A stretch of 64,000 bases of DNA from positions 122,230,341 to 122,294,340 of the forward strand of contig JARDVH010000001.1 of NCBI GenBank assembly GCA_030324005.1, written 5' to 3'. Positions 15,978 through 63,711 of this stretch are shown here, one piece after another; within the stretch, counting starts at the first letter, position 1; every line of letters begins with the position of its first letter. The DNA is from Negaprion brevirostris. Its lineage: Eukaryota. The notes below the pieces were generated by a model, which saw nothing but the letters and a program-made list of their open reading frames with translations, was not told the origin of the DNA and searched no databases. The position numbers were made by a program, and so were the translations under genes.

Positions 15978-16341
15978 TTATCCCGGGAATAGTCCAGATT
16001 CATGTCCTCTCATCCCGGGAATATTCCAGATGGATGCTCTCCCATCCCGGAAACAGTGTAGGATAATTCTCCCCAGTCCTGGGATTGGTCCGGATTGATG
16101 TTGTTCTATCCCGGGATTGGGAATACTCTGGTACAATGTTCTATCCCTCTGGGAATCTCGCTCTCTTATCCCGAGAATACTTTGAGACTCTCCACTATCC
16201 AGGGATTGGGAATACTCTGGGACTCTTTCCCAGGGTTGGGAACACTCTGGGACTCTCCTATCCCGGGATTGGGAATACTCTGGGACTCTTTCCCAGGGTT
16301 GGGAACACTCTGGGACTCTCCTATCCCGGGATTGGGAATAC
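15978..16341. repeat. Minisatellite, 30-33 bp monomers forming a 63-bp dimer
   Basis: tcccgggattgggaatactctgggactctt + tcccagggttgggaacactctgggactctccta repeated at 16198-16260 and 16261-16323; diverged TCCCGGGA monomers to the left; runs into a gap. Confidence 0.9.
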
Positions 16342-16397
16342 NNNNNNNNNNNNNNNNNNNNNNNNNNNNNNNNNNNNNNNNNNNNNNNNNNNNNNNN

Positions 16398-17035
16398 ATC
16401 TTCACCCCAGTTCACCCTAACCTTTAAGCTCTAACCTTTAACCTAACCCTTAATCCCAACACCTAAACCACTAATCCTCAACCCTAACCCTAATGCAGAG
16501 TCCATTCCCATCTTCACCCAAATTCACCCTAACCTTTAATCTAACCCTTAACCCAACCCCTTAACCCTAACCCCAATGCAAAGCCCGTTCCCATTTTCAC
16601 CCCAATTCACCTCAACCCCCAAACGCAAANNNNNNNNNNNNNNNTAATCTAACCCCTAACCCTTAACCCAACCCCTTAACCCCAAACCCTAACCTTAAAC
16701 CCTAACCTCAATGCAGAGCCCATTCCCACTTTCACCCGAATTCACCTCAACCCCGAACCCTTAAACCCTAACCCCTAACCTAACCTACTCGAACCCCAAA
16801 CCTTACCCTTAACCTAACCCTAACCTCAATGCAGAGGCCGTTCCCATTTTCACCCGAATTCACCCCCACCTCTAACCATAACCTTAACCCCAACCCCGAA
16901 CCTTAAACCTAACCTCTCCATTCCCTCAAACCCCCTCACTGTATCCTTTCCACATGCCCAAACCCTAACTGCACTGTGTCCTCTCAATACACCATCCCCA
17001 AAAAACTAACCTAACATCTCCACACCCCCATCCCA
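16398..17035. repeat. Composite satellite with degenerate (CCCTAA)n telomere-like tracts
   Basis: Core aatgcagagcccattcccattttcacccgaattcacc recurs about 5 times (16398, 16492, 16575, 16710, 16828), separated by ccctaa/ccttaa/cccaaa variants. Confidence 0.85.
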
Positions 17036-27100: not shown

Positions 27101-29430
27101 AATTGAACATGAGCCACACCTATCTTCAGTTTGAGTTGGATGAGTCCGCCAGGAAATATGTGATGTATAAGGGACTCTATAAGAATACCACCTTGCCTTC
27201 TAGGTCTCATTAGCGTGTGCCATTTTCCAAAGAGTTATGGAGAACATCCTTCAAGGGCTACCTCGATGATGTCTTGGTCATAGGGGCTTTAGAACCTGGC
27301 ATAGAAGAGTCTTGCAGAGACTTTCCAGATTGGGAATTTGCTTGAAGAGGTAGAAATTAGTTTTTTAAATGGCTGAAGTAACCTATTTAGGCTACTGAGT
27401 AGCTGGCAAGGAGTTATATCCAGTAAAAGGTCCAATAAGGGTTTATAGTTAGACCCAAAAAAAATCCAACCCTATCTAAAATAAGGCATATGATTCTACA
27501 TGGGGGTTTCCAAGGACAGCCCTCAGAAAAAATGAAACCCTATCTCAATAAGAAAGATGAACTTGGTGTTGAGGATGGGGTCATTCTTTGGGGGTCACAA
27601 GTAATTGTTCCACCTTCAGGATGGTGTCCAATATTAACAGAACTAAATTAGAATTAATTGGCCACTCCAAGTATCAAAAACATAGATGCTGACTAGAAGT
27701 TACATCTGATGGCCCGATTTTGACTCAGACATCACAGACTTTGTAAAGCAATGTGACCTGTGCCAAGAGAATCAAAAGGTCGCACCCTCAGATTCCAAGT
27801 ACCTATGGGAGTGGCCTGGTGGGTCTTGGGTGAATGTATATGTGGCCTTTATGGATTCCATGTTTTTACTCATGATGGATGCACTCCCTAAGTGGTGCAC
27901 TACATGGGCTCCACATCTTCCCAGGCTACAGCTGAGAAATTACGGCAACGCTTCAGGAGACACAGGATGCTAGCCTGGCTTCCAATGAAGGCACGGCCTT
28001 TACTAGATGTGATTCCCAGAACTCTGTGCTCTCTAATGGTATCCAACACGTCTGAACTGCACCTTATCAGCCAACATCAAATGCACTGTCAGAATGGGCA
28101 GTGCAAATCTTCAAAAAGGCCATGAAGAAGCAACTGGCGGCATCCATGGAGACCAAACTGGCACATTTTTTATTCGATTACAGGACCACACTACACACAA
28201 CAACAGGTTGTGGAAATGGTAATAGGACAATGACTTTGTACCAGAGCAAGCCTGCTATTCCCAAACTTGGCAGGAGGGTAGAGTCTAAACAAGAAAACCA
28301 GAAAGAAATTACAATTCTGCAAGGACAGAAAGAACGTTCGCAACCGGTGATCTGGTTTGTGTGAGAAACTTCAGGGTTGATCCCAGTTGGGTCCCTGGGA
28401 TTGTTAGGGAGAAAACAGAACCAGGGTTGTAGGAAGTCCAATTCCAGGGTAAAACCTTGAAGAAGCATTGGACCATCTCAGAGCCAGAGAGTCCCTGCCT
28501 GATCAGGTTCCACTACCAGCCATGGATATGGCCACTGCTAGTGCCAGCCCACAGCTGGAAGCTGAATCCACATTAGCCTCTCTGGATAGTGAAGGGACAG
28601 ACTCGGAGATGGAGGCTTGAAGGGGTGGCCTCCAGGCTGAAGCAGAAGCTGCTTTGGTAATGTTTTGATGGTCTCTCTGGAAATGAAGGTCCCCTGTCTG
28701 GATTACACTGCCTGACCAAGCCCCACATCCGATGGATCTTTGACTGATCACTAAACAAAGCCAGGGGCTTTTATGCAATAGTGGTGCTGGGAGAGACTTG
28801 GACCTAAGCAGGGGAGATGTTATGATGGCCACAAAGGATCATCAATATATCTCCCCATGGGTTTCATGGAGTACAAGTTCCCTTATTGAGCAGGTGGAGG
28901 TTTGACCAGTAGGAAGCATTCAGCAGAGCTGTTAAACCTCTTATTTCAGCCTGAGCGGTATTGTAGGTCCTGAGAGGTTGCACTACCTAGCTGGGAGCCA
29001 TGGGATCAGTCTGTGCTTTGGCGACGGGAAACTGGAGTTCGGCTGAGTCACGCAAACTCTTTAATAAATGAGCGTTACAGATTGGCTGAAGGCCGTGACT
29101 TTGGCGACCTCAAGGTGGAGCTCATAAGAGACTGGATAGTCATTCAGATACTCATTCAGATATCCTCTAATCTAATGAAGATCTGACTAAGGAAAGAGCT
29201 ATCCAAATCATCAGAAAATCAGAATTCTGCCAACAAAGCCATTCCATTTTGCATGGACAAGTTAAACCATGGTCCAGAGCAACCCCACAGTTCAGCTCAG
29301 AAAGCAATAGAAGGGCAAGGAGACTACAGCACAGGAAAGCAATACCCAAGCAAAACATCAGGTGATGGCAGACCATGTCTACACTGTGGCACCAAAAGAC
29401 CTCACACATGAGTGGTGCCCTTCAATCATT
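24117..29430 (+). mobile_element. Host Gypsy LTR retrotransposon remnant (LTR 24117-24357 plus gag), split by a second Gypsy
   Basis: TG...CA LTR with AATAAA followed by PBS-like tgatgccag; gag text RRFLRYMVASGFNKKTEAE before and YRLAEGRDFGDLKVELIRDWIV plus CLHCG...H...CP knuckle after the insertion. Confidence 0.75.
25205..29050 (+). mobile_element. Gypsy (Ty3) LTR retrotransposon, decayed, with paired LTRs (25205-25470, 28818-29050)
   Basis: Alignable LTRs starting TGTTA; PBS-like tggcaatga; PPT aagcaggggaga; gag LAEYCEVG..LNDMLRARLVCGIND, protease MEVDTG, RT APVVPALKPD..LCGDYK and YLDDVLV, integrase region FLFDYRTTLHTTTG; RNase H region appears deleted. Confidence 0.95.
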
Positions 29431-36578: not shown

Positions 36579-37385
36579 TTGTGAGAAGTCTCACAACACC
36601 AGGTTAAAGTCCAACAGCTTTATTTGGTAGCACAAACTTTCGGAGCACTGCCCCTTCATCAGGTGAGTGGGAGTTGTGTTCACAAAAAGGGCAAATATAG
36701 ACACAAGTTCAGTTTACAAGATAATGGTTGGAATGCAAATCTTTACAGGTAATCTTAAAGGTACAGACAATGCGAGAGGAGAGAGGATTAAGCACAGGTT
36801 GTCTCTAGCCAGGACAGTTAGTGAGATTTTGCAAGCCCAGGCAATCACCAGGCAGGAATGTTCTCTTCCTGTTGGGGAACACTTCAGCAGTGACAGGCAT
36901 TCAGCTTCTGATCTTCGGGTAAGCGTTCTTCAAGGCGGCCTTCACGGCACACGACATTGCAGAATCACTGAGCAGAGACTGATAGCCAAGTTCCGCACAC
37001 ATGAGGGCGGCCTCAACAGGAATCTTGGGTTCATGTCACACTATCTGTAACCCCCATGACTTGCCTGGGCTTGCACAATCTCACTAACTATCCTGTCTGG
37101 AGACAATACACATCTCTTTAACCTATGCTTAACGCTCTCTCCACTCACATTGTCTGTACCTTAAAAGACTTGATTTCCCGTAAAGACTTGCATTCCAACC
37201 ATTACCTTGTAAATTGAATTTGTGTCTTTATATGCCCTGTTTGTGAAAACAACTCTCACTCACCTGATGAAGGAGCAGCACTCTGAAAGCTTGTGCTACC
37301 AAATAAACCTGTTGGACTTTAACCCGGTGTGGTGAGACTACTTACTGTGCTTACCCCAGTCCAACGCCGGCATCTCTATATCATC
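36579..37385 (+). mobile_element. Penelope-like insertion with inverted terminal repeat and 10-bp TSD
   Basis: 36582-36845 is the reverse complement of about 37060-37345; GIY-YIG C-terminus LPVGEHFSSDRHSASDLRVSVLQGGL...EQRLIAKFRTHEGGLNRNLGFMSHYL; TSD tctaactgaa at 36569-36578 and 37386-37395. Confidence 0.95.
37256..37340 (+). ncRNA. Minimal hammerhead ribozyme motif in Penelope terminal repeat
   Basis: CTGATGA (37264-37270), stem II ggag-cagca-ctct, GAAA (37285-37288), short stem III agc-ttgt-gct; mirror copy on minus strand at about 36625-36668. Confidence 0.7.
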
Positions 37386-41330: not shown

Positions 41331-42499
41331 CTACACCAAGGAGTTAATAGGCTGCAGTTGGACAGGAAGTTCTGCCTCATAAATCTTCCAGCCAATTAAT
41401 TGGCTGGCAGCTCAATAGTCCCAGCAGTGTCAGGTGGGAGCAGTGGCCACCACTGGGACTACAGGCAGTCTCCATTAGAGACTGTTCTACATGGTGCTGG
41501 ACACAAAGTAAGCTGGTTGTGGGGAGGGTAAAGGAGGCAATGTGATCTTGGGGGATGGGTTTCACGGGCACAGGCCGCATGGCTAAAGCTGCTGGGCTTC
41601 CCACATTGTGTGGGCCTTGCCCTGACACTTTTAAAAAGCAGCAAGGGAACAGAAGGAGGTCCTTAAGTGGCAATTAATTGGTTTCATGAATGACAAGTAA
41701 AAAGACTAAGTGGCCAAATCCATGTGTGAGGCTAGATGGTTTCAGTGGAGTACTTAGCAACAGAATCAAGTCTGATTCAATCCTCCCCCAGTGCCAACTC
41801 ACTTTTCAAAAGGTGCCATTACATAATACCTAGGAGTAGGAATCCTGTTTGATAGTTTCTGCCTCAGCTCAGAGGAACTTGCGATGTTTAAGCTGTGGCT
41901 CCAGATGAAGGTTCACTATTTTTCACCAGTTTTAAAAGGTGTTCAATCATTCGATCACTTCCACATAAAGCATTGTTCCTCTTCTGAGACTCAATGCAGA
42001 CAACTTACTTGAGGTCTCCATCAACCAATAATGATCTCCAAAAGTAGCTTAAGAAGGGAAGGTGAAAGATTTCTGTATGTATTGCTTAAGTAACTAATTG
42101 AGCTTAATGATAGATATAAGAATGACAGATGATATGGAAATTTACGTGTTCTAATATAATGTTGTTTGCCTGTCGGTGCTCTATATACAGACTGTTTCTA
42201 CACTCTATCTATTGACATACAAGACCAAGAAAATCTCTGGCTGATCATCACCTACTTCCCCATTTCTCCTCTTGAATATTACTTAGGAAGGTCCAAGCTA
42301 GAAGAGAGAATATTCTTTGGTTGGGCACTAGATTGGACAGGGTGATGAATCAAGACAAGAAAGTAAGTTACTTGGCATCGTAATCTATCTATTACAGAAA
42401 CTCACCAATTAACTGCTCTGCTATCACAGCTTTTAAAATAAGAGTTGGGCCATTTTCTAATGTGGAAATATTTGTAGGGATACAGGAAAAACAAAAAGT

Positions 42500-42912
42500 C
42501 AGAATGTAGCTCAGTCCATCACTCAAACCATCATTGACACTGTCTACACTTCAGTCTGCCTTGGAAAAACAGCCAGCATAATCAAGGACTCCAGACATTT
42601 TCTCTTCCACCTTCTTCTGTCAGGAAAAAGTTACAAAAGTCTATGGTCACGTACCAACTGACTCAAAAACAGCTTCTTCCCTGCTACCGATAAACTTTTG
42701 AATGGACCTCCCTCGCACTATATTGATCTTTCTCTACACCCTAGCTATGACTGTAACATCACATTCTGCACTCTCTCCTTTCTTTCCATTGCTAAGTACT
42801 CCACTGAAACCACCTAGCCTTCACTGTGAAGGTATGTTTTGCCTGTATAGCGTTGCAAGAAACAATACGTTTCACTGTACATTAATACATGTGACAATAA
42901 TAAAATCAAATC
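42500..42912 (+). mobile_element. Rex1/Babar LINE 3' fragment
   Basis: Matches 48340-48727; ends tacatgtgacaataataaaatcaaatcaa. Confidence 0.85.
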
Positions 42913-43627
42913 AAGGGAAAAGGCAGGAGAGTGGTACTAGATAAATTGCTCTTGCGGAGATCTGGCAGGGATATGATGGGCCAAATGGCATCTATGATGC
43001 TTCTATGTTCAATATTGGTTCTGCTTGAAGCACTTAGCTCCAGGCCTTATCCCAGATGTAAGACCTGAATGTCTGAGAGAGAGATGGGATGAATTGAGTG
43101 AGAGAGAGAGAGAGAGATGGGGAGAGCTCATCTCCATATTAAGACAATCATGAACATGGCACCAAGGAATACTTGGGAAAACTGTGGCCAATAGAGGTAG
43201 ATGGGAAAGCAATCAAGAATAATAGCAGCAGTCTCATGGGAATGCCATCATGTCCAATGTCTCCTCGTTCACACACGATCCTGACTCCCACTTGCATTGT
43301 CTTTATTATCTTCGGATTTAACATCCTGGAATTCTCACCATGAGAAATGATGCAAGGCCATTGAAAATGGATAATGAATTTGGTTCTGCCAGTGTTGCCT
43401 ACAGGAGCAAAAGAAAGAACAACTGTTTCCAAGCCTTGTGAATCTCAACATAATAAACAAATATCACTATAAATGAGTCTGAATCACTCCGATTTTATGG
43501 TCCAGTTTGGTGACCCGTTTGGTAAAACAAATTTTATCTGTAAATAGAATAGTCGTAGTGTTTCAATATGAGAAGAAGCTTTATATGGACTGAATACAAG
43601 CTGAGTCGAGTTTTCTTTAAAACCTAA

Positions 43628-43772
43628 GTTGAGCTTTCTCTACACCTTAGCTATGACTGTAAAACTACACTCTGCACCCTCTTGTTTTCTTCTCTATGAA
43701 CAGTATGCTTTGTTTGCAAGAAACAATACTTTTCACTGTTTACTAATACATGTGACAATAATAAATCAAATC
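43628..43772 (+). mobile_element. Rex1/Babar 3' UTR fragment
   Basis: ctacaccttagctatgactgtaa...gtgacaataataaatcaaatcaa. Confidence 0.85.
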
Positions 43773-43895
43773 AAAAAAAAATTGTTAAAACCAGTCAGCT
43801 TTTTTTGCACAGAGCTGCTGGCAGCTTGTTCCAAATCTCCGTAAAGTCCTTGGACAAATGCTCAGGTTCCTCAAGTACAAGGATTCAGGGGGAGG

Positions 43896-45935: not shown

Positions 45936-46542
45936 CAGAACATTGGGGATCTAAGTTTCAGGTAAAGCCCAAAGGAATGGGAAGAATATCTCCTCAGCCT
46001 AAAAGTCCAATGTAATATTAGCTTGACAAAACACATTCATTAAGGCCACAGGATGATTGATAAGAGAAGTGAGAAATCCTGTGCCTTCGCTGTTAGTGTG
46101 AGAGAATGGAACCCTCTCTTGAAACACCCTGAGGGCAGGTATAACCCAGCTGAATACAGGTGAAGCTTTCTCTACTACCCATCTCAGTCCAAAACTCACA
46201 GCAGGAAAGAAAATCAGCCTCATTCTCTCTTGATCCTTGCTGAGACTGGTTGGCAGATTTTAATGTTTGTAATTATTTGTATACTATGTGTAACATATTA
46301 AATTATAAAATAACATTTGTGTGAGTTGTCGCTTGAAAAGAATTAATGGGTTAAAGCAGACCTGGGAATCATACACTTTCTTACGCTTCCTGGTAGTAAA
46401 TCAGATGGTACTTTTAACTTCCTCTTTGAGGGGAATATTTCTATATACCTTATACTCATATATAAAGGGTTAAGAGAGGGTGAAGTATATTAGATTTTTC
46501 TGTCGTGGATTTAACTCACAGCATGCTAATTTTTATGCTGAA

Positions 46543-46768
46543 ACTGCTTCTCGGCCTTTTGGCTAAGATCAAACATTGGATCAAACCCAAAATGGGATAC
46601 AATGCCTTATCTTCTCAGCTTGGATCTTGTTTGTCTCTCTTGCGGGGACCATGAATTGGATTCAATTGAATTTGAATTTGATTTTTGGAGCAAACGAGGA
46701 GGTGGATTCGGCCCGGTCCACTCTGAGCATCGGCTTTGTAATTTTAAGAATGGAGTAAAAAATTTTTT
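46543..46768 (+). pseudogene. U2 snRNA-derived element (remodelled U2 / candidate snRNA-headed SINE)
   Basis: gcttctcggccttttggctaagatcaa identical to U2 nt 4-30; gatttttggagca Sm-site region; gtccactc..gcatcg 3' similarity; branch-point recognition GTAGTA absent. Confidence 0.85.
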
Positions 46769-47675
46769 CAAGAATTCTTGGGCCCACTCTAATGCCTCCA
46801 GCTGACCTGGACTACCTGGGTTCAGCTAACTTAAATATTGCTTGTGGTATCCATACCAGTATGGGTGCAACTTGGGTGATGCTAGTGAGGGAGTGACAGG
46901 AGGAAAGTACAGCATTGGCAATCTGTTTAGTGATGCAGGGGAGGAGGAAGCTTGTCTTGTCAGCTTCAAAGGATTTCTTTGAGAGTTGCCACGATATTGC
47001 TAGTGTTTGTCTGGGCTAGCCTGACAAGACTCAGGCTAGGACATCCCATAGCCACCCAATAGCGCCTCCCCATGGACCTGGATGTCAATTCAATTATTTG
47101 ATTGCTGGAGGCACATGAGGGGCAATTGGGAGGAGGCTGAAATCCCCCCTCTCTTTGTCACACTGGAAATGGTATGTGCCAACTGTTCTGGGGCAAACAT
47201 GCAGTAATGCCTGAATTTCTGCACTTTCATCAACGCTGCCAGCTGATTTATCCAAGGATTTTCCTGAGGAAATTCAAAGCCCATACCTTTATCCAATTTA
47301 TCTCTAAATCTCAGATGAAGGTTTATGACATTAAACAACACACCATGAGGTACCTGCCATTCCAAAGTGAGTGCGGTAATATAGAACAACATAGAATTTA
47401 ATTAGCCAAGATTACTATAAACAAGTTAACAATATTAACCTTTAGGTCCCACCAATTCTACAAGGATAAATTACTCAAAAGGTGCAACTACCAGAGTGTA
47501 GGAACAAGCTTTGGTTACAGGAGTAATCATAAACCATTGAGAGAGAAAATGGTTGTATAAAATACCTCAAAATTGCAATTACACAAAGGCTACAAGGGTA
47601 TAAGCATTTATGGGAAAGGTAACAGTTTGATCAGATGGTACTGATTTGTGTAGTCACTACGTTCAGTGCAAACAT

Positions 47676-48727
47676 CTGTGGCCTGGGCCTCGGCACGTCC
47701 CTCTGTGACTGGATCCTGAACTTCCTAACTCACTGACCACAATCAGCAAGGATAGGCAACAACACCTCCTCCACAATCATCCTCAACATCAGTGCCCCAC
47801 AAGGCTGTGTTCTCAGCTCCCTACCATACTCCTTACACACCTATGACTGTGCAGCCAAATTCCCCTCCAATTCGATTTTCAAGTTTACTGACAACACCAC
47901 CAAAGTGGATTGGAGCTCAAACAATGCCAAGACAGAGTACAGGAATGAGGTAGAGAAACTGGTGAACTGGTGCGGCAACAATAATCTCTCCCTCAATGCC
48001 AACAAAACTAAGGAGACCGTCATCGACGTCAGGAAGCGTAAAAGGGGAACATGCCCTTCTACATCAATGGGGACAAAGTAGAAAGGGTTCAGAGCTTCAA
48101 GTTTTTAGGTGTCCAGATCACCAACAACTGTCCTAATCCCCCCTATGCTGACACTATAATTAAGAAAACCCACCAACACCTCTACTTCCTCAGAAGATTA
48201 AGGAAATTTGGTGTGTCAACTATGACTCTTACCAACTTTTACAGAAGCGTCATAGAAAGCATTCTTTCTGGTTGTACCACAGCTTGGTATGACTTCTGCT
48301 CTGCTCAAGACTGCAAGGAACGACAAAAGGTCATGAATGTAGCCCAATCAATCAATCACGCAAACCAGCTTCCCATTCATTAACTCTGTATACACTTTCC
48401 GCTGCCTCGGCAAAGCAGCCAGCATAGTTAAGGACTCCACACACCACGGCCATTCTCTCTTCCATCTTCTTCTTCTTTCAGGGAAAAGATACAAAAGTCT
48501 GAGGTCACGTACCAACCAACTCAATAACAGCTTCTTCCTTGCTGCTGTCAGACTTTTGAATCTTACCTTGCATTAAGTTGATATTTCTCTACACCCTAGC
48601 TATGACTGTAACAACATTCTGCACCCTCTCGTTTCCTTCTCTATGAACGGTATGTTTTGCCTGTACAGCACACAAGAACTTTTCACTGTATGCTAATACA
48701 TGTGACAATAATAAATCAAATCAAATT
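47676..48727 (+). mobile_element. Rex1/Babar LINE, 5' truncated
   Basis: LCDWILNFLT...APQGCVLS...KFTDNTT, VERVQSFKFLGVQIT, LYFLRRLRKFG...FYRSVIESILSGC; (AAATC)n tail. Confidence 0.95.
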
Positions 48728-50093: not shown

Positions 50094-50402
50094 TTAAGGA
50101 CCCCACACACCCCAGACATTCTCTCTTCCACCTTCTTCCTTTGGGAAAAAGATACAAAAGTCTGAGGTCACGTACCAATCGACTCAAGAACAGCTTCTTC
50201 CCCGCTGCTGTCAGACTTTTGATTGGACTTACCTTGCATTAAGTTGATCTTTCTCTACATTCTAGCTATGACTGCAGCACTATATTCTGCACTCTCTCGT
50301 TTCCTTCTTTTTGAATGTTATGCTCTGTCCGTATAGCGTGCAAGAAACAATACTTTTCACTGTATGTTAATACATGTGACAATAATAAATCAAATCAAAT
50401 CA
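50094..50402 (+). mobile_element. Rex1/Babar 3' fragment
   Basis: High similarity to 48430-48727. Confidence 0.9.
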
Positions 50403-54860: not shown

Positions 54861-55487
54861 TAGGTCTAGGGGACAACATTTAAAAATAAGGAGTCTTCCA
54901 TTTAAGGTGGAGATGAGGAGAAAATTTCTCACTCTGAAGGTCATTAATCTTTGGAATTCTCTTCCCCAGCAGTTGAAGCTGGGTCACTGAATGTATTCAC
55001 GTCTGAGTTAGGCAGGTTCCTGATTGATGAGGAAATTAAAGGCTATAAGAGGTTAATCAGGAAAGTGGAGCAGAAGCCACAATCAAATCAACCATCAAAT
55101 AGCCTACTCCCAATCTGTGTCTTCATATGTATGTCACTAATGTCTTTCCTAATAAGAGAAAGAGATTCTTTCCACTATCGTTATCAATTTAAAAAGCAAA
55201 GCAAGCCAAAGAAGAAGACAGGCAGGTAAATATGTGGAACAAATTACAGCAAACTACAAAACTGAAACATCCAACTAATACTAAAATATTCAATGCTTCC
55301 CTCGAGTTCCAAAATTGGTAAGTTTATGGTAATAAGTATTCATTCTAATTGCTCTTCATCTCACCAGGTACATTGAAGGCACAAGCTAATTGTGTACTGT
55401 TCTGATTCATATCTGCATGGGACTGCCTGTGCTCAGCCATTCTGCTGATTCTGTAGAGTTCTTTGGCCAGAAATCAACAGATACAAA

Positions 55488-55775
55488 TTTTGATTTGATT
55501 TATTATTTCACATGTATTGTTATACAGTGAAAAGGTATTGTTCCTTGCAAGCTATACAGACAAAACATACTGTTCATAGAGTACAAAGGGGAGAAGGAAA
55601 GGAGAGGGTGCAGAACATAGTGAACAATAGTAGTTAAGGTGTAGAGAAAGATCAGCTTAATATAAGGTAGGTCCATTCAAAAGTCTGATGGCGGCAGGGA
55701 ACAAGCTGTTCTCGAGTCAATTGGTATGTGATCTCAGACTTTTGTATCTTTTTCCCGACAGAAGAAGGTGAAAGT
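55488..55775 (-). mobile_element. Rex1/Babar 3' fragment
   Basis: ttgatttgatttattatttcacatgtatt reverse tail. Confidence 0.9.
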
Positions 55776-57619
55776 GAAAACGTCCAGATACACAGAGACT
55801 TGCTAACTCACTGTTGTTGGTTTGTTCAGATGAGGTTTCAGCTGGACCAAGTGGGAACTTTTAAAAGTTTGCATTGGTTTTAGTTAACTTTCAGTCAATG
55901 TATTGCAAGGCTATTGCAATGTATTGCAAGGCCGATTATCTGCCGTAAATCCAATGGGACTGCACAACGGTCATTTTTCTGGGCTCTTCCGTTGATGTTA
56001 CATTAACCAATTCAGGAAAACTCTGTGGAAATTCATCCTCTATATTTTCCAGGTCTCTTGTCTTCATGACAAAATTGGATCTGGCTAACCTCAGTGTAGA
56101 GTTGCACAGTTTACATCAATGTACTGTTGAAACCACTTTGCATTTCTGCTATTTGTGTAACCTAACAAGTGAGCAAATGACAGTCTTTTTGTAATCTACA
56201 CTTTGAAGTGCAGAAAAAAACAAATGGTAATGATCAGCAATAGATTTGTGTGTGAGGCTCTGTAGATGTGCCAGTTACATGTGCAGCTTGCCATAGAAGG
56301 CAGGCAAAGGCAGGTTGAACAAAGATCAATGGGTTGAGATATGCCCCAGTTCCTCCACTATCACTGGAGTAGCAGAGACGTCAGGGAGGCCTGAGAGACA
56401 GGAGACAGGTGTTGTTAAAGACAGATGCTCCTGATTACACCCTTTAAAACAAATAAAACACAGGTTTAGCGCAGAGTCCCACTTTGTCAGACACACCCAA
56501 AAACAAAATTTCAACCTCCCACCATTTGAATCGTTATGCCAAATAGTTCCTCCCATATCTGATTCCACATGTGGAGTCCAGCACATTGAGTAGCTGTAGG
56601 AAATCTGAATTGATTATCTGGTTAGAATATATAATATTAGAGTAACCCAAGAGAAATTGCAAGAGATGATTGTTTAATATATATAAAGGTGATAAAATGT
56701 AAATCACCAAAGACAGATTGCTATCCAGAGCACCCTAACTTCAATTCCCACCACAGGCTGTGTATTCCTAGATTGCTGAATAGATTTCATTCTGTTTTAC
56801 TGGGGTGAGGCAGGTGGACCAAGCACAAAGCTTTGTGATGTTTGAAGTTTCCATATGGTGCAGAGTGCCATTAGCTGCATTGCAGGCTTCACATGTAAAT
56901 TCTCACATGTTACCAGGAGGGCTTCCAGTCCCTCCACATTCAGCCCTTACGTGACCACACTGAGTGCACCGGGCATGCTTAATGCTGGTATCCCTGCAGC
57001 CATTCTGTAGCAGTCTGCTGCACCTTCTATATTTAAGCCCCATGGCAAAGCAGAGAAATTCTCTTGGGTGACAAGAGTTACCCTCTGATGATACTGCTCC
57101 TGACTCCAATGTGCAACCTATGCATTTATGGAGAGCATAAATACATTGAAAGACATTGGGGGGGGTTTAAACAATGCTTCTGCTGTCTGGAGAAACCCTG
57201 CATCAAACAAAAGAGAATGTATCAAGATTCACCATGATTAGCTGCATGCTACATTACAGGGACAGGGTCTGGGTGGGATTGTTGTCAGTGTAGGCTCGAT
57301 GGTCTGAATGGTTTCATTTGATACTGTCGGGTTTCTATTCTATGGCTGGTGGACGGCTGCCGGTGTTCGACAGGAGAGTCTGCAGATGGTCGAATTCTAG
57401 CAGCTCTAACTTTGCAAACCCAGCTCTGGACCACACCACAGTGATATAAGTGGCAGCAGGCTGACTGCCCAAGGGGCAATAGCAAGTGAACTGGCAGGTT
57501 GGCAGGGGTAGAAGGATGACTGCTGCTCCCTGCGAAGGGATAGAAGGGTTGCGCTCCACAGAGCCACTGTCAGGCCTCCAGCTGGGTACCTCAGCAACCC
57601 TAGCAATGGGTTGAAAGTC

Positions 57620-62580: not shown

Positions 62581-63005
62581 CAAGGATCTACAAAAGGTCG
62601 CAAGTGTAGCCCAATCCATCACGCAAATCGGCTTCCCATCCATTGACTCTGACTACACTTCCCGCTGTCTCGGCAAAGCAGCCAGAATAATTAAGGATCT
62701 CACACACCCCGGACATTCTCTCTTCCACCTTCTTCCCTCGGGAAAAAGATACAAAAATCTGAGGTCACATATCAATCAACTCAACAGTAGCTTCTTCCCT
62801 GCTGCTGTCAGACTTCTAAATGGAACTATCTTATATTAAGTTGATCTTTCTCTACACCCTGGTTAAGACTGTAACATTAAATTTTGTGCTCTCTCCTTTT
62901 TGTCTTTCCTATGTACTCTATGAATCTATGTTTTGTCTGTATAGCGCACAAAAACAATACTTTTCACTGTCCACTAATGTATACTAATACATGTGACAAA
63001 TCAAA
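62581..63005 (+). mobile_element. Rex1/Babar 3' fragment
   Basis: High similarity to 48315-48727. Confidence 0.9.
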
Positions 63006-63711
63006 ATAACTTCTTGCAACTGTTCTAGTTCTTTTCCTCTGAATATTTGAATATTCTTCGCTGCTTTTGAGATATGCACCGCTTTGATTTTGTCAATGTT
63101 CATTTTCATTCCAAAGTTCATATGTTCTGTTACTAGTCTGTCTATCTAATTCTTGTAATCCTTCTGTGCTTGCTATGAGACATAGACAACACTATGAGGC
63201 AAGGAGCTGCCTTCAGGCAGAGTGTGCACCGTGTGCTGACAGTGACGAGGAGTGAGCAGACCTTTCATTGGAGGTCATTATTGAGATTGTTTCTCTTCTT
63301 CCTTGCAAATATCAGTGAAAAGACAACACCCTGGGCACTGTAATGTAGCAAAATGGATGACTTTATTTTTAAACAATTAGATGTTTAACTTTGTTCCAAG
63401 CCAAGCAAAATACTAGCAGTCTAAAATTCATTATAAACGACCATGCTTTTTATTATTGAACCATTTAAAGAACTCCTCTTTTCAGCTCATATCTCGACTT
63501 CTACTGTCCACGGATCTACTCAACTCCTGTCCAAATTAAATTAAATAATTAACTTTAATTAAAATTCCCTGAATAGTGCTTCAATAGGTATTGATTAGCA
63601 GTAAATTACAGAGTGACTAATCCCAGCTGGATATAAGAAAGATCCTGCTTCAGGCATATAATCATTAAGTGGGCCAAAAGCAGTGAGAGAGACTACATCC
63701 TGAGAGACATG

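Follow-up and report, generated by a model that had tools for sequence, protein, structure and literature searches.

A colinear derivative of U2 small nuclear RNA (snRNA) lies on the forward strand at 46543-46756 of the window, the 64-kb stretch of shark DNA that was analysed in this study. The homology runs across U2 nt 1-184, and the element as a whole occupies ~220 bp. Its parts are as follows.

46543-46572 (+), U2 head, nt 1-30 (stem-loop I and U6-pairing region): nt 4-30 identical at 27/27 positions, nt 1-3 at 1/3.
46573-46596 (+), 24-nt insertion absent from U2: a gap in both the MAFFT and the model alignments.
46597-46605 (+), probable remnant of the branch-point recognition region (U2 nt 31-39): 3/9 identical, 6 transitions, 0 transversions.
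46606-46632 (+), degenerate U2 nt 40-67 with stem IIa broken: 17/26 identical over nt 40-66.
46633-46649 (+), stem-loop IIb: 6/6 mapped pairs, two of them G-U.
46650-46666 (+), 17-nt insertion before the Sm site: resembles an inverted or tandem copy of the pre-Sm/Sm stretch.
46667-46691 (+), pre-Sm stretch and intact Sm site (46680-46688): 20/25 identical to nt 85-109 of reference gene L003.
46698-46724 (+), stem-loop III: 8/8 basal pairs, apex altered and ~6 nt shorter, from the Rfam alignment.
46727-46756 (+), degenerate stem-loop IV, aligned by cmscan: 9/11 pairs, 8 nt gone at the loop.
46757-46768 (+), A6 run (possible short tail) followed by T6: the centre of an imperfect inverted repeat at 46746-46779.

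Reference U2 genes were obtained by scanning GTDB with the U2 head, which yielded 48 loci on eukaryotic contigs filed in metagenome-assembled genomes (MAGs); 46 of the 48 fetched loci were analysed for sequence, and L016 and L045 were left out. The bacterial MAGs in question (e.g. CBDAUV01, CAXXBX01 and CBDCEV01) contain these eukaryotic contigs as binning contaminants, and on contigs of this kind U2 is arrayed in tandem at L013-L015, with a spacing of 2,081 bp. U2 numbering was taken from L003, which is not a shark U2 and therefore limits every identity figure reported here. The genes L003, L038 and L035, which we take to be of vertebrate type in their 3′ half, are identical to L003 at 160-174 of 191 positions. 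Across four references, 65 of the 66 columns of U2 nt 1-66 are invariant. The Rfam U2 model RF00004 was used with its gathering cut-off of 46 bits, and full-length reference genes (five among the six loci tested) score 150.8-192.2 bits on this model. The alignment blocks for the body and stem statistics were positioned by hand.

The Infernal comparison with the Rfam U2 model, which a preliminary description of this DNA had proposed, gave a match of 46543-46763 (+) along model positions 1-192 at 35.6 bits (E 5.9e-5), but this score is under the gathering cut-off, and the 64-kb window has no match to Rfam at gathering level. The body (46573-46768) aligned with U2 nt 31 to the end at a score of 78.5, which was reached by 0 of 2000 dinucleotide shuffles. 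The body alone (46600-46775) has no U2 match in Rfam, returning only snoU30 at E 3 by chance; therefore, the homology of the body rests on the pairwise shuffle test together with the full-length match. Two sub-blocks are not significant singly, namely, 46607-46632 (545/2000 shuffles) and 46633-46650 (282/2000). Identity to L003 is 12/16 over nt 40-55, 6/12 over nt 57-68 and 10/16 in stem IIb; it is 7/9 and 11/15 in the arms of stem-loop III and 13/18 and 8/14 in those of stem-loop IV. The stretch 46611-46626 was considered separately as a second degenerate U2 head and rejected (275/2000 shuffles score as well).

Much of the anatomy agrees with the preliminary description. The identity of 46546-46572 to U2 nt 4-30 holds at all 27 positions against L003, and the Rfam consensus agrees at every letter; a 26-mer of this head has a single occurrence in the window and none in 100 shuffles, and stem-loop I forms 7/7 pairs, in agreement with the Rfam alignment. 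The IIb-like hairpin (6/6 pairs), the Sm site (46680-46688) and the stem of loop III (8/8 basal pairs) are colinear with U2, as had been stated. The claim that stem-loop IV is replaced by an A/T-rich end is contradicted: cmscan aligns this stem-loop, 9/11 of its pairs form, one of them through a double change from C-G to U-A, and A6T6 replaces the final 7 nt only. The 5′ arm of stem-loop IV matches U2 at a level reached by 4/2000 shuffles, and the U2B″-type loop sequence is not intact. Two features had been overlooked, namely, the broken stem IIa (3/6 pairs) and the second insertion of 17 nt.

Head and body diverged to sharply different degrees, with 27/27 identical positions in nt 4-30 and 90/134 in the body (Fisher p 9e-5). 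When only positions invariant in the three vertebrate-type genes are counted, the body retains 75/108 (p 2.8e-4 versus the head), divided into 20/35 in nt 31-67, 20/27 in nt 68-109, 16/19 in nt 110-144 and 19/27 in nt 145-184. Nucleotides 1-66, nearly invariant in U2, are split in the element into a perfect half and its most diverged half. When uniform decay of 25-33% was simulated, the fraction of copies with nt 4-30 intact was 4e-4 to 5e-6, and the fraction with any 27-nt run intact was 1.5% to 0.1%. The contrast between head and body means, therefore, that uniform decay after insertion is insufficient and that an additional process is needed, for which head replacement and selection are the candidates. 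The element is a real U2 derivative, and a statistically odd one.

The sequence at the branch-point site had been described as unrelated to U2, a statement that holds in part: the branch-pairing sequence is gone either way, but the site more likely carries mutated nt 31-39 behind an insertion. The stretch 46596-46605, aligned with U2 nt 30-39, continues the gapless diagonal of nt 40-55 with 3 matches, 7 transitions and 0 transversions, and this diagonal is the sole 10/10 purine/pyrimidine match among the 30 offsets tried. MAFFT and a profile built from that alignment place the 24-nt gap alike. These alignments suggest that the branch-point region was probably mutated behind the 24-nt insertion, and not deleted or swapped out. 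The branch-point recognition sequence itself (nt 33-38) is not retained, since nt 31-39 are identical at only 3/9 positions and are displaced by the insertion; 46597-46605 cannot form the canonical branch helix.

The 24-nt insertion is similar to U2 nt 13-34 in inverted orientation (repeat I1, 17 nt, 76%) and repeats an 8-mer from the head junction (direct repeat D8). Against the U2 reverse complement it matches at 15/22 positions, a value equalled by 57/2000 shuffles, or by 12/2000 when compared with the head only; an origin as an inverted U2 copy is suggestive only, these counts carrying no correction for multiple tests. Inverted repeats were also found at the 17-nt insertion (I2, 17 nt, 71%) and at the 3′ end of the element (I3, 17 nt, 71%); in I1-I3, the two insertions and the 3′ end each resemble the sequence beside them, inverted and imperfectly copied. 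The fold of the whole element has a z score of -2.12. An autonomous hairpin in the insert (z -0.69) was discarded as evidence.

The stems of the body are better preserved than its identity. The pairs of IIb, III and IV are kept at 23/25, against a permutation mean of 16.8 (P 0.0015) and against 17.9 under a 3′-only null (P 0.003). On invariant positions the count is 17/18 versus 13.1 expected (P 0.013); under the strictest null, which uses invariant positions in nt 68-184, it is 17/18 versus 14.7 (P 0.071), and with IIa included on invariant positions it is 20/24 versus 17.1 (P 0.096). Six one-sided C-to-T changes in IIb, III and IV preserve a G-U pair, with 0 one-sided breaking G-to-A changes (p 0.03), and the deletions in the element sit at stem-loop apices, not in basal stems. 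We regard this as moderate evidence, weakened by the hand-placed blocks and the non-shark reference, that the body may have diverged as a folded transcript.

Folding predictions were obtained for the insertions as well. The loop of the broken stem IIa can pair with 46651-46665 in a stem-IIc-like manner (duplex -7.6 kcal/mol, 67/3000 shuffles). The 17-nt insertion is predicted to pair with the Sm site in a 13-bp hairpin in both MFE and centroid folds, and the predicted unpaired probability of the Sm site is 0.14 in the element versus 0.45 in real U2. The insertions are further predicted to pair with the head (-12.0 kcal/mol, 103/3000 shuffles). Such pairing with head and Sm site would therefore block U6 and Sm binding alike.

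Promoter elements were compared with those of the reference genes. An ACC/CCC-type box was seen by eye within -66 to -45, near -61, in 9/9 full-length genes inspected, and inspection by eye of the sequence upstream of the element in the window found no such box. A proximal sequence element (PSE) pattern has 6 matches in the window versus 11.7 expected by chance, none of them near the element. On both counts the earlier statement that a canonical PSE is lacking is borne out. The companion statement, that a 3′ box is lacking, carries less weight: the one fixed-spacing pattern used is absent beside the element, and its 67 matches across the window are as many as chance predicts (67.2). An imperfect 15-nt inverted repeat (I4, 46443-46490) lies at the expected PSE place, with an ACC-type box on the minus strand, and is probably due to chance.

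Of the target-site duplication (TSD) and tail that the preliminary description had suggested looking for, no duplication was found around the element, 187 of 300 random sites scoring equally well, and A6 is the only possible tail. No second copy was detected in the 64-kb window by blastn, nhmmer or an unfiltered profile search, and the next best window match of the last search, whose model included the element, had E 0.074. Among 48 head matches in 46 fetched loci, none of which is known as shark, 0 continue with the insert, and the insert has no exact match among the 48 fetched loci. A plasmid blastn with the element gave no match, as expected.

Coding potential was surveyed over the element and the window. 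The translation of frame 46542-46802 has no candidate relative (a weak test), and frame 46567-46755 gave one candidate that was not significant, with Atlas scores all <0.8 (again a weak test); no Pfam family was assigned to the frames over the element. A match of frame 46542-46802 at E 1.7e-4 in the 50% representative library, to a bacterial Ig-domain protein, was rejected as chance. In a Pfam scan of 300 of the 318 stop-free ORFs of >=58 aa (the 18 beyond 60142 being left out), no host gene exon was recognised, and mobile-element domains and two weak DUF matches were the only results. A crude splice-site scan gave five unconvincing candidates, and a search of the window returned no tRNA gene.

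The surroundings of the element are repeat-rich, and neighbouring repeat copies are 68-97% alike, mostly 70-87%. At 47737-48726 lies what is left of a 5′-truncated LINE, which matches RVT_1 and ALKBH8_N in two frames; its reverse-transcriptase remnant (47737-48380) begins ~1 kb downstream of the element and shows no link to it, and the 3′ end of this LINE is the commonest repeat in the window. Further LINE-related pieces occur at 42484-42914, 43625-43775, 50094-50400, 55487-55785 and 62581-63007. A GIY-YIG-like repeat ORF (36667-37047) is located inside an inverted repeat pair of 82% identity at 36581-37345, a repeat that is presumably Penelope-like; the ORF has nine relatives, of which the one named is from Mustelus asterias (78%), in support of a shark host. 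A weak integrase zinc-binding match at 27710-27970 (+), with E 1e-4 and below the cut-off, probably marks an LTR-element remnant. At 16175-16914, a degenerate telomere-like (CCCTAA-type) array comes after a 63-bp minisatellite, with CpG raised at 15-18 kb; this is possibly an interstitial telomeric repeat near a promoter.

Several of the fetched loci are themselves altered U2 sequences. On contig CBDHDV010000143.1, a eukaryotic contig in a Rubritalea MAG, L039:296-485 (+) is a full-length U2 of 150.8 bits with all stems formed, in which IIa is changed but paired and the branch-point region reads GTAGAAATAA in place of U2 GTGTAGTATC. It may be a natural branch-recognition variant and, as such, more interesting than the element in the window. 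In the same MAG, L004, L026, L029 (two heads) and L039 from 746 onward consist of the first 58 nt of this variant and a common non-U2 tail, and by their sequence they could represent a SINEU-like or arrayed family in another eukaryote. Four identical U2 copies (L001, L007, L012 and L040) carry a single change in the branch-point region (GTGTATTAT). The loci L005, L010, L017 and L025 have U2 heads of ~33-49 nt followed by non-U2 sequence, L005 and L017 with the gene's upstream flank, and are possible Keno/Utopia-type insertions or truncated copies.

The element, which descends from full-length U2 and has no PSE, is most likely a jumping-element or pseudogene copy and not a working splicing gene. 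By analogy with the crocodilian SINEU-3, our best explanation is that a LINE would have moved a U2-derived RNA that had long been diverging, leaving here a dead copy with a SINEU-3-like layout and a head that was refreshed or conserved; we consider this reading evenly poised between right and wrong. A U2 paralogue would have lost branch-point recognition and stem IIa, keeping IIb, the Sm site and the bases of stem-loops III and IV, and because of these losses it would have left the spliceosome. It may have persisted for a while as a folded transcript, acquiring two short fold-back or slippage insertions. The reverse transcriptase of a non-LTR retrotransposon, Tx1/L1-like by analogy, could have copied this RNA in trans from a short A tail, and the head would have been refreshed from true U2 via template switch or recombination, or conserved at the source locus. 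We infer the source locus, the retrotransposition, the head refresh and the family status; the present copy is most likely silent apart from read-through.

Counted in favour of a LINE-moved copy are the full-length colinear homology, the contrast between head and body, the stem retention, the lack of a PSE, the 3′ A6, the LINE remnants in the window, the agreement with SINEU-3 in retained and lost modules and the recurrent addition or recombination of SINEU heads; counted against it are the single copy in 64 kb, the lack of the insert behind the head matches of the fetched loci, the lack of a TSD, the tail of six A, the stem P values of 0.071 and 0.096 and the clean branch-point deletion of SINEU-3, where the element appears to carry a mutated region behind an insertion. 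That a SINEU-3-like family arose independently in sharks, with no host function, has in our judgement somewhat less than an even chance. It is likelier than an expressed and selected cartilaginous-fish U2 paralogue that retains the U6-pairing head, the Sm site and the 3′ stems, lacks branch-point recognition, acts as a decoy or regulator and also seeded a mobile family with this locus as one copy, which we regard as very unlikely.

The alternative that survives best, although we think it rather unlikely, is a lone old full-length U2 pseudogene, whether a retrocopy or what remains of a duplicated gene, with ~25-33% decay at its present site and with neither family nor function. Its insertions would be local fold-back or slippage products, and its first 30 nt would have been restored by gene conversion or cDNA recombination, or have survived by chance. 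The single copy in the window, the missing TSD and PSE and the score under Rfam gathering agree with such a history; so do the likeness of both insertions to inverted or direct copies of adjoining sequence, a decay within the range of the neighbouring repeats (68-97% alike, mostly 70-87%) and the strictest stem test, which is not significant (P 0.071). Moreover, the perfect head is what drew attention to the element, which is an ascertainment bias. Nevertheless, chance survival of nt 4-30 has a probability of at most 4e-4 at a divergence of at least 25%, and a lone pseudogene therefore needs an extra event. The most invariant part of U2 (nt 31-67) is here the most diverged (20/35), yet the 3′ stems are kept, and deletions fall at stem-loop apices with the basal stems spared; both observations speak against such a pseudogene. 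Full-length U2 retrocopies are also rare in human, where 0/58 are polyadenylated according to the available text of PMC4476161.

A functional variant snRNA, encoded here or at a master gene, is quite improbable. It would be an Sm-class RNA that retains the U6-pairing head and the 3′ domain, does not read branch points and serves as a U6/Sm decoy or regulator. The perfect stem-loop I and U6-pairing region, the intact Sm site and the retention of most of stems IIb, III and IV, where changes preserve G-U pairs and one pair changed on both sides, are what such an RNA would be expected to have, and a stem-IIc-like pairing is possible (67/3000 shuffles). Human U2 variants with changes in the branch region are expressed and enter snRNPs, as reported in the part of PMC8457000 available. 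The locus, however, has no PSE, IIa is broken, the loop of stem-loop IV is damaged, and by prediction both the head and the Sm site (Sm unpaired 0.14) are engaged by the insertions; no host gene exon was recognised among the 300 of 318 ORFs scanned. Runs of T act as terminators of Pol III transcription, and the internal T4 and T5 runs of the element speak against transcription by this polymerase. The same rule is invoked in PMC4494074.

The least probable reading, which we consider highly improbable, is a Keno- or Utopia-type strike on U2 at nt 38/39 that left a 33-nt remnant (46573-46605), deleted nt 31-38 and then decayed: clear U2 identity does restart at nt 40, U2 downstream of Utopia starts at nt 39 and some Utopia families are proposed to delete their target site (both from the available text of PMC4640811), and Keno uses the same site (PMC6136364, likewise in part), but the all-transition diagonal crosses nt 30-39 and a junction at 38/39 is not seen, an A-rich end ahead of nt 39 is missing from the insert, the younger head is left unexplained, the upstream U2 promoter is missing and the word 'shark' is absent from the available text of PMC4640811.

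Should the shark element keep and lose the same U2 modules as SINEU-3, this would point to a repeated, independent birth of snRNA-derived retroposons and suggest a rule, according to which branch-point recognition is lost and the 5′ end and Sm domain are kept. A source locus with a promoter would open the question of SINEU transcription to testing, and a conserved expressed RNA, if one exists, would be a vertebrate U2-like snRNA without branch-point reading. A single-copy element would be an unusual pseudogene and of small importance. Its mosaic divergence, partial stem conservation and parallel with SINEU-3 set it above an ordinary pseudogene.

Comparison with known systems places the element as follows. 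No shark U2-derived SINE or variant, and no vertebrate U2-like snRNA unable to read branch points, was met in the literature searched, whose scope lay outside Repbase, Dfam and subscription papers and which was available in part. The accessible portions of PMC7245038 and PMC5786205 add no snRNA-headed SINE from hosts other than crocodilians, and the accessible portion of bioRxiv 10.1101/2025.02.02.635956, searched by term, returned no passage on U2 or shark.

The element shares with RF00004 the model positions 1-192, stem-loop I, IIb, the Sm site, the base of stem-loop III and part of stem-loop IV. It differs in its score (35.6 versus 150.8-192.2 bits) and in the loss of the branch-point sequence, IIa, the loop of stem-loop IV and the PSE. 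The element is not a U2 gene, failing on score, branch region, IIa, the stem-loop IV loop and PSE. The human U2 variants that enter snRNPs carry small branch-region changes only, as far as the available part of PMC8457000 describes them.

With tailless U2 retropseudogenes the element has in common that it is a promoterless genomic copy in which the U2 5′ end is intact. Among the characterised young human U2 copies, 57/58 are 3′-truncated (PMC4476161, Doucet et al. 2015, available text), and 50/57 of the tailless truncated ones have TSDs (PMC4476161). These copies stop early, whereas the element runs to nt 184 and has no TSD; the earlier remark that this is not the usual 3′-truncated U2 retrocopy is confirmed by this reach. 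The disruption adjoins the U2 nt 38/39 target of Keno (Tx1 clade) and Utopia, but the break is at nt 30/31, and neither coding sequence nor a tail of a retrotransposon is present at the site.

The SINEU families offer the nearest comparison. As in SINEU-1 and SINEU-2, a young snRNA head seems to be joined to an older body via template switch or recombination; the body of SINEU-1 is not U2 and SINEU-2 consists of U1 and U2, whereas the element has U2 in both its head and its body, in register with each other. In the sections of PMC4494074 available, SINEU heads are repeatedly added or recombined and SINEU-2 insertions can be without TSD. The transcription of SINEU is left open there (PMC4494074, Kojima 2015). 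Of the features that define SINEU, the element has a U2-derived 5′ head, a length of <500 bp, no coding function and no promoter of its own. Where SINEU has a 3′ poly(A) tail, the element has A6 (46757-46762) followed by T6.

SINEU-3 consists of U2 nt 1-32, a ~50-nt deletion, the middle 83 nt, ~40 nt of non-U2 sequence and poly(A); it has ~1,600 copies in crocodilians only, was likely moved by Tx1-Mar and targets Mariner-N4_AMi (PMC4494074, same sections). The comparison with SINEU made in the preliminary description is apt, and closer than it had been put, since SINEU-3 combines a U2 head, a loss after the head and a poly(A) end (PMC4494074). Compared by description, SINEU-3 lives in a crocodilian host and the element in a shark. 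Where SINEU-3 has a clean deletion of ~50 nt, the element retains nt 31-84 in degenerate form, with a branch-point region that is probably mutated and preceded by a 24-nt insertion; its 3′ sequence of ~40 nt is non-U2, whereas the 3′ end here is U2-derived (stem-loop IV) and IIb is kept. With these SINEU-3-specific features lacking, the element is not filed as SINEU-3. Both are short, U2-only elements in which the first 30-32 nt and the Sm/stem-loop III part are kept, the branch-point/IIa region does not work, the 3′ terminus ends in A and an own promoter is absent. Membership of SINEU depends on copy number, and by this analogy the element would be SINEU-3-like in how it works.
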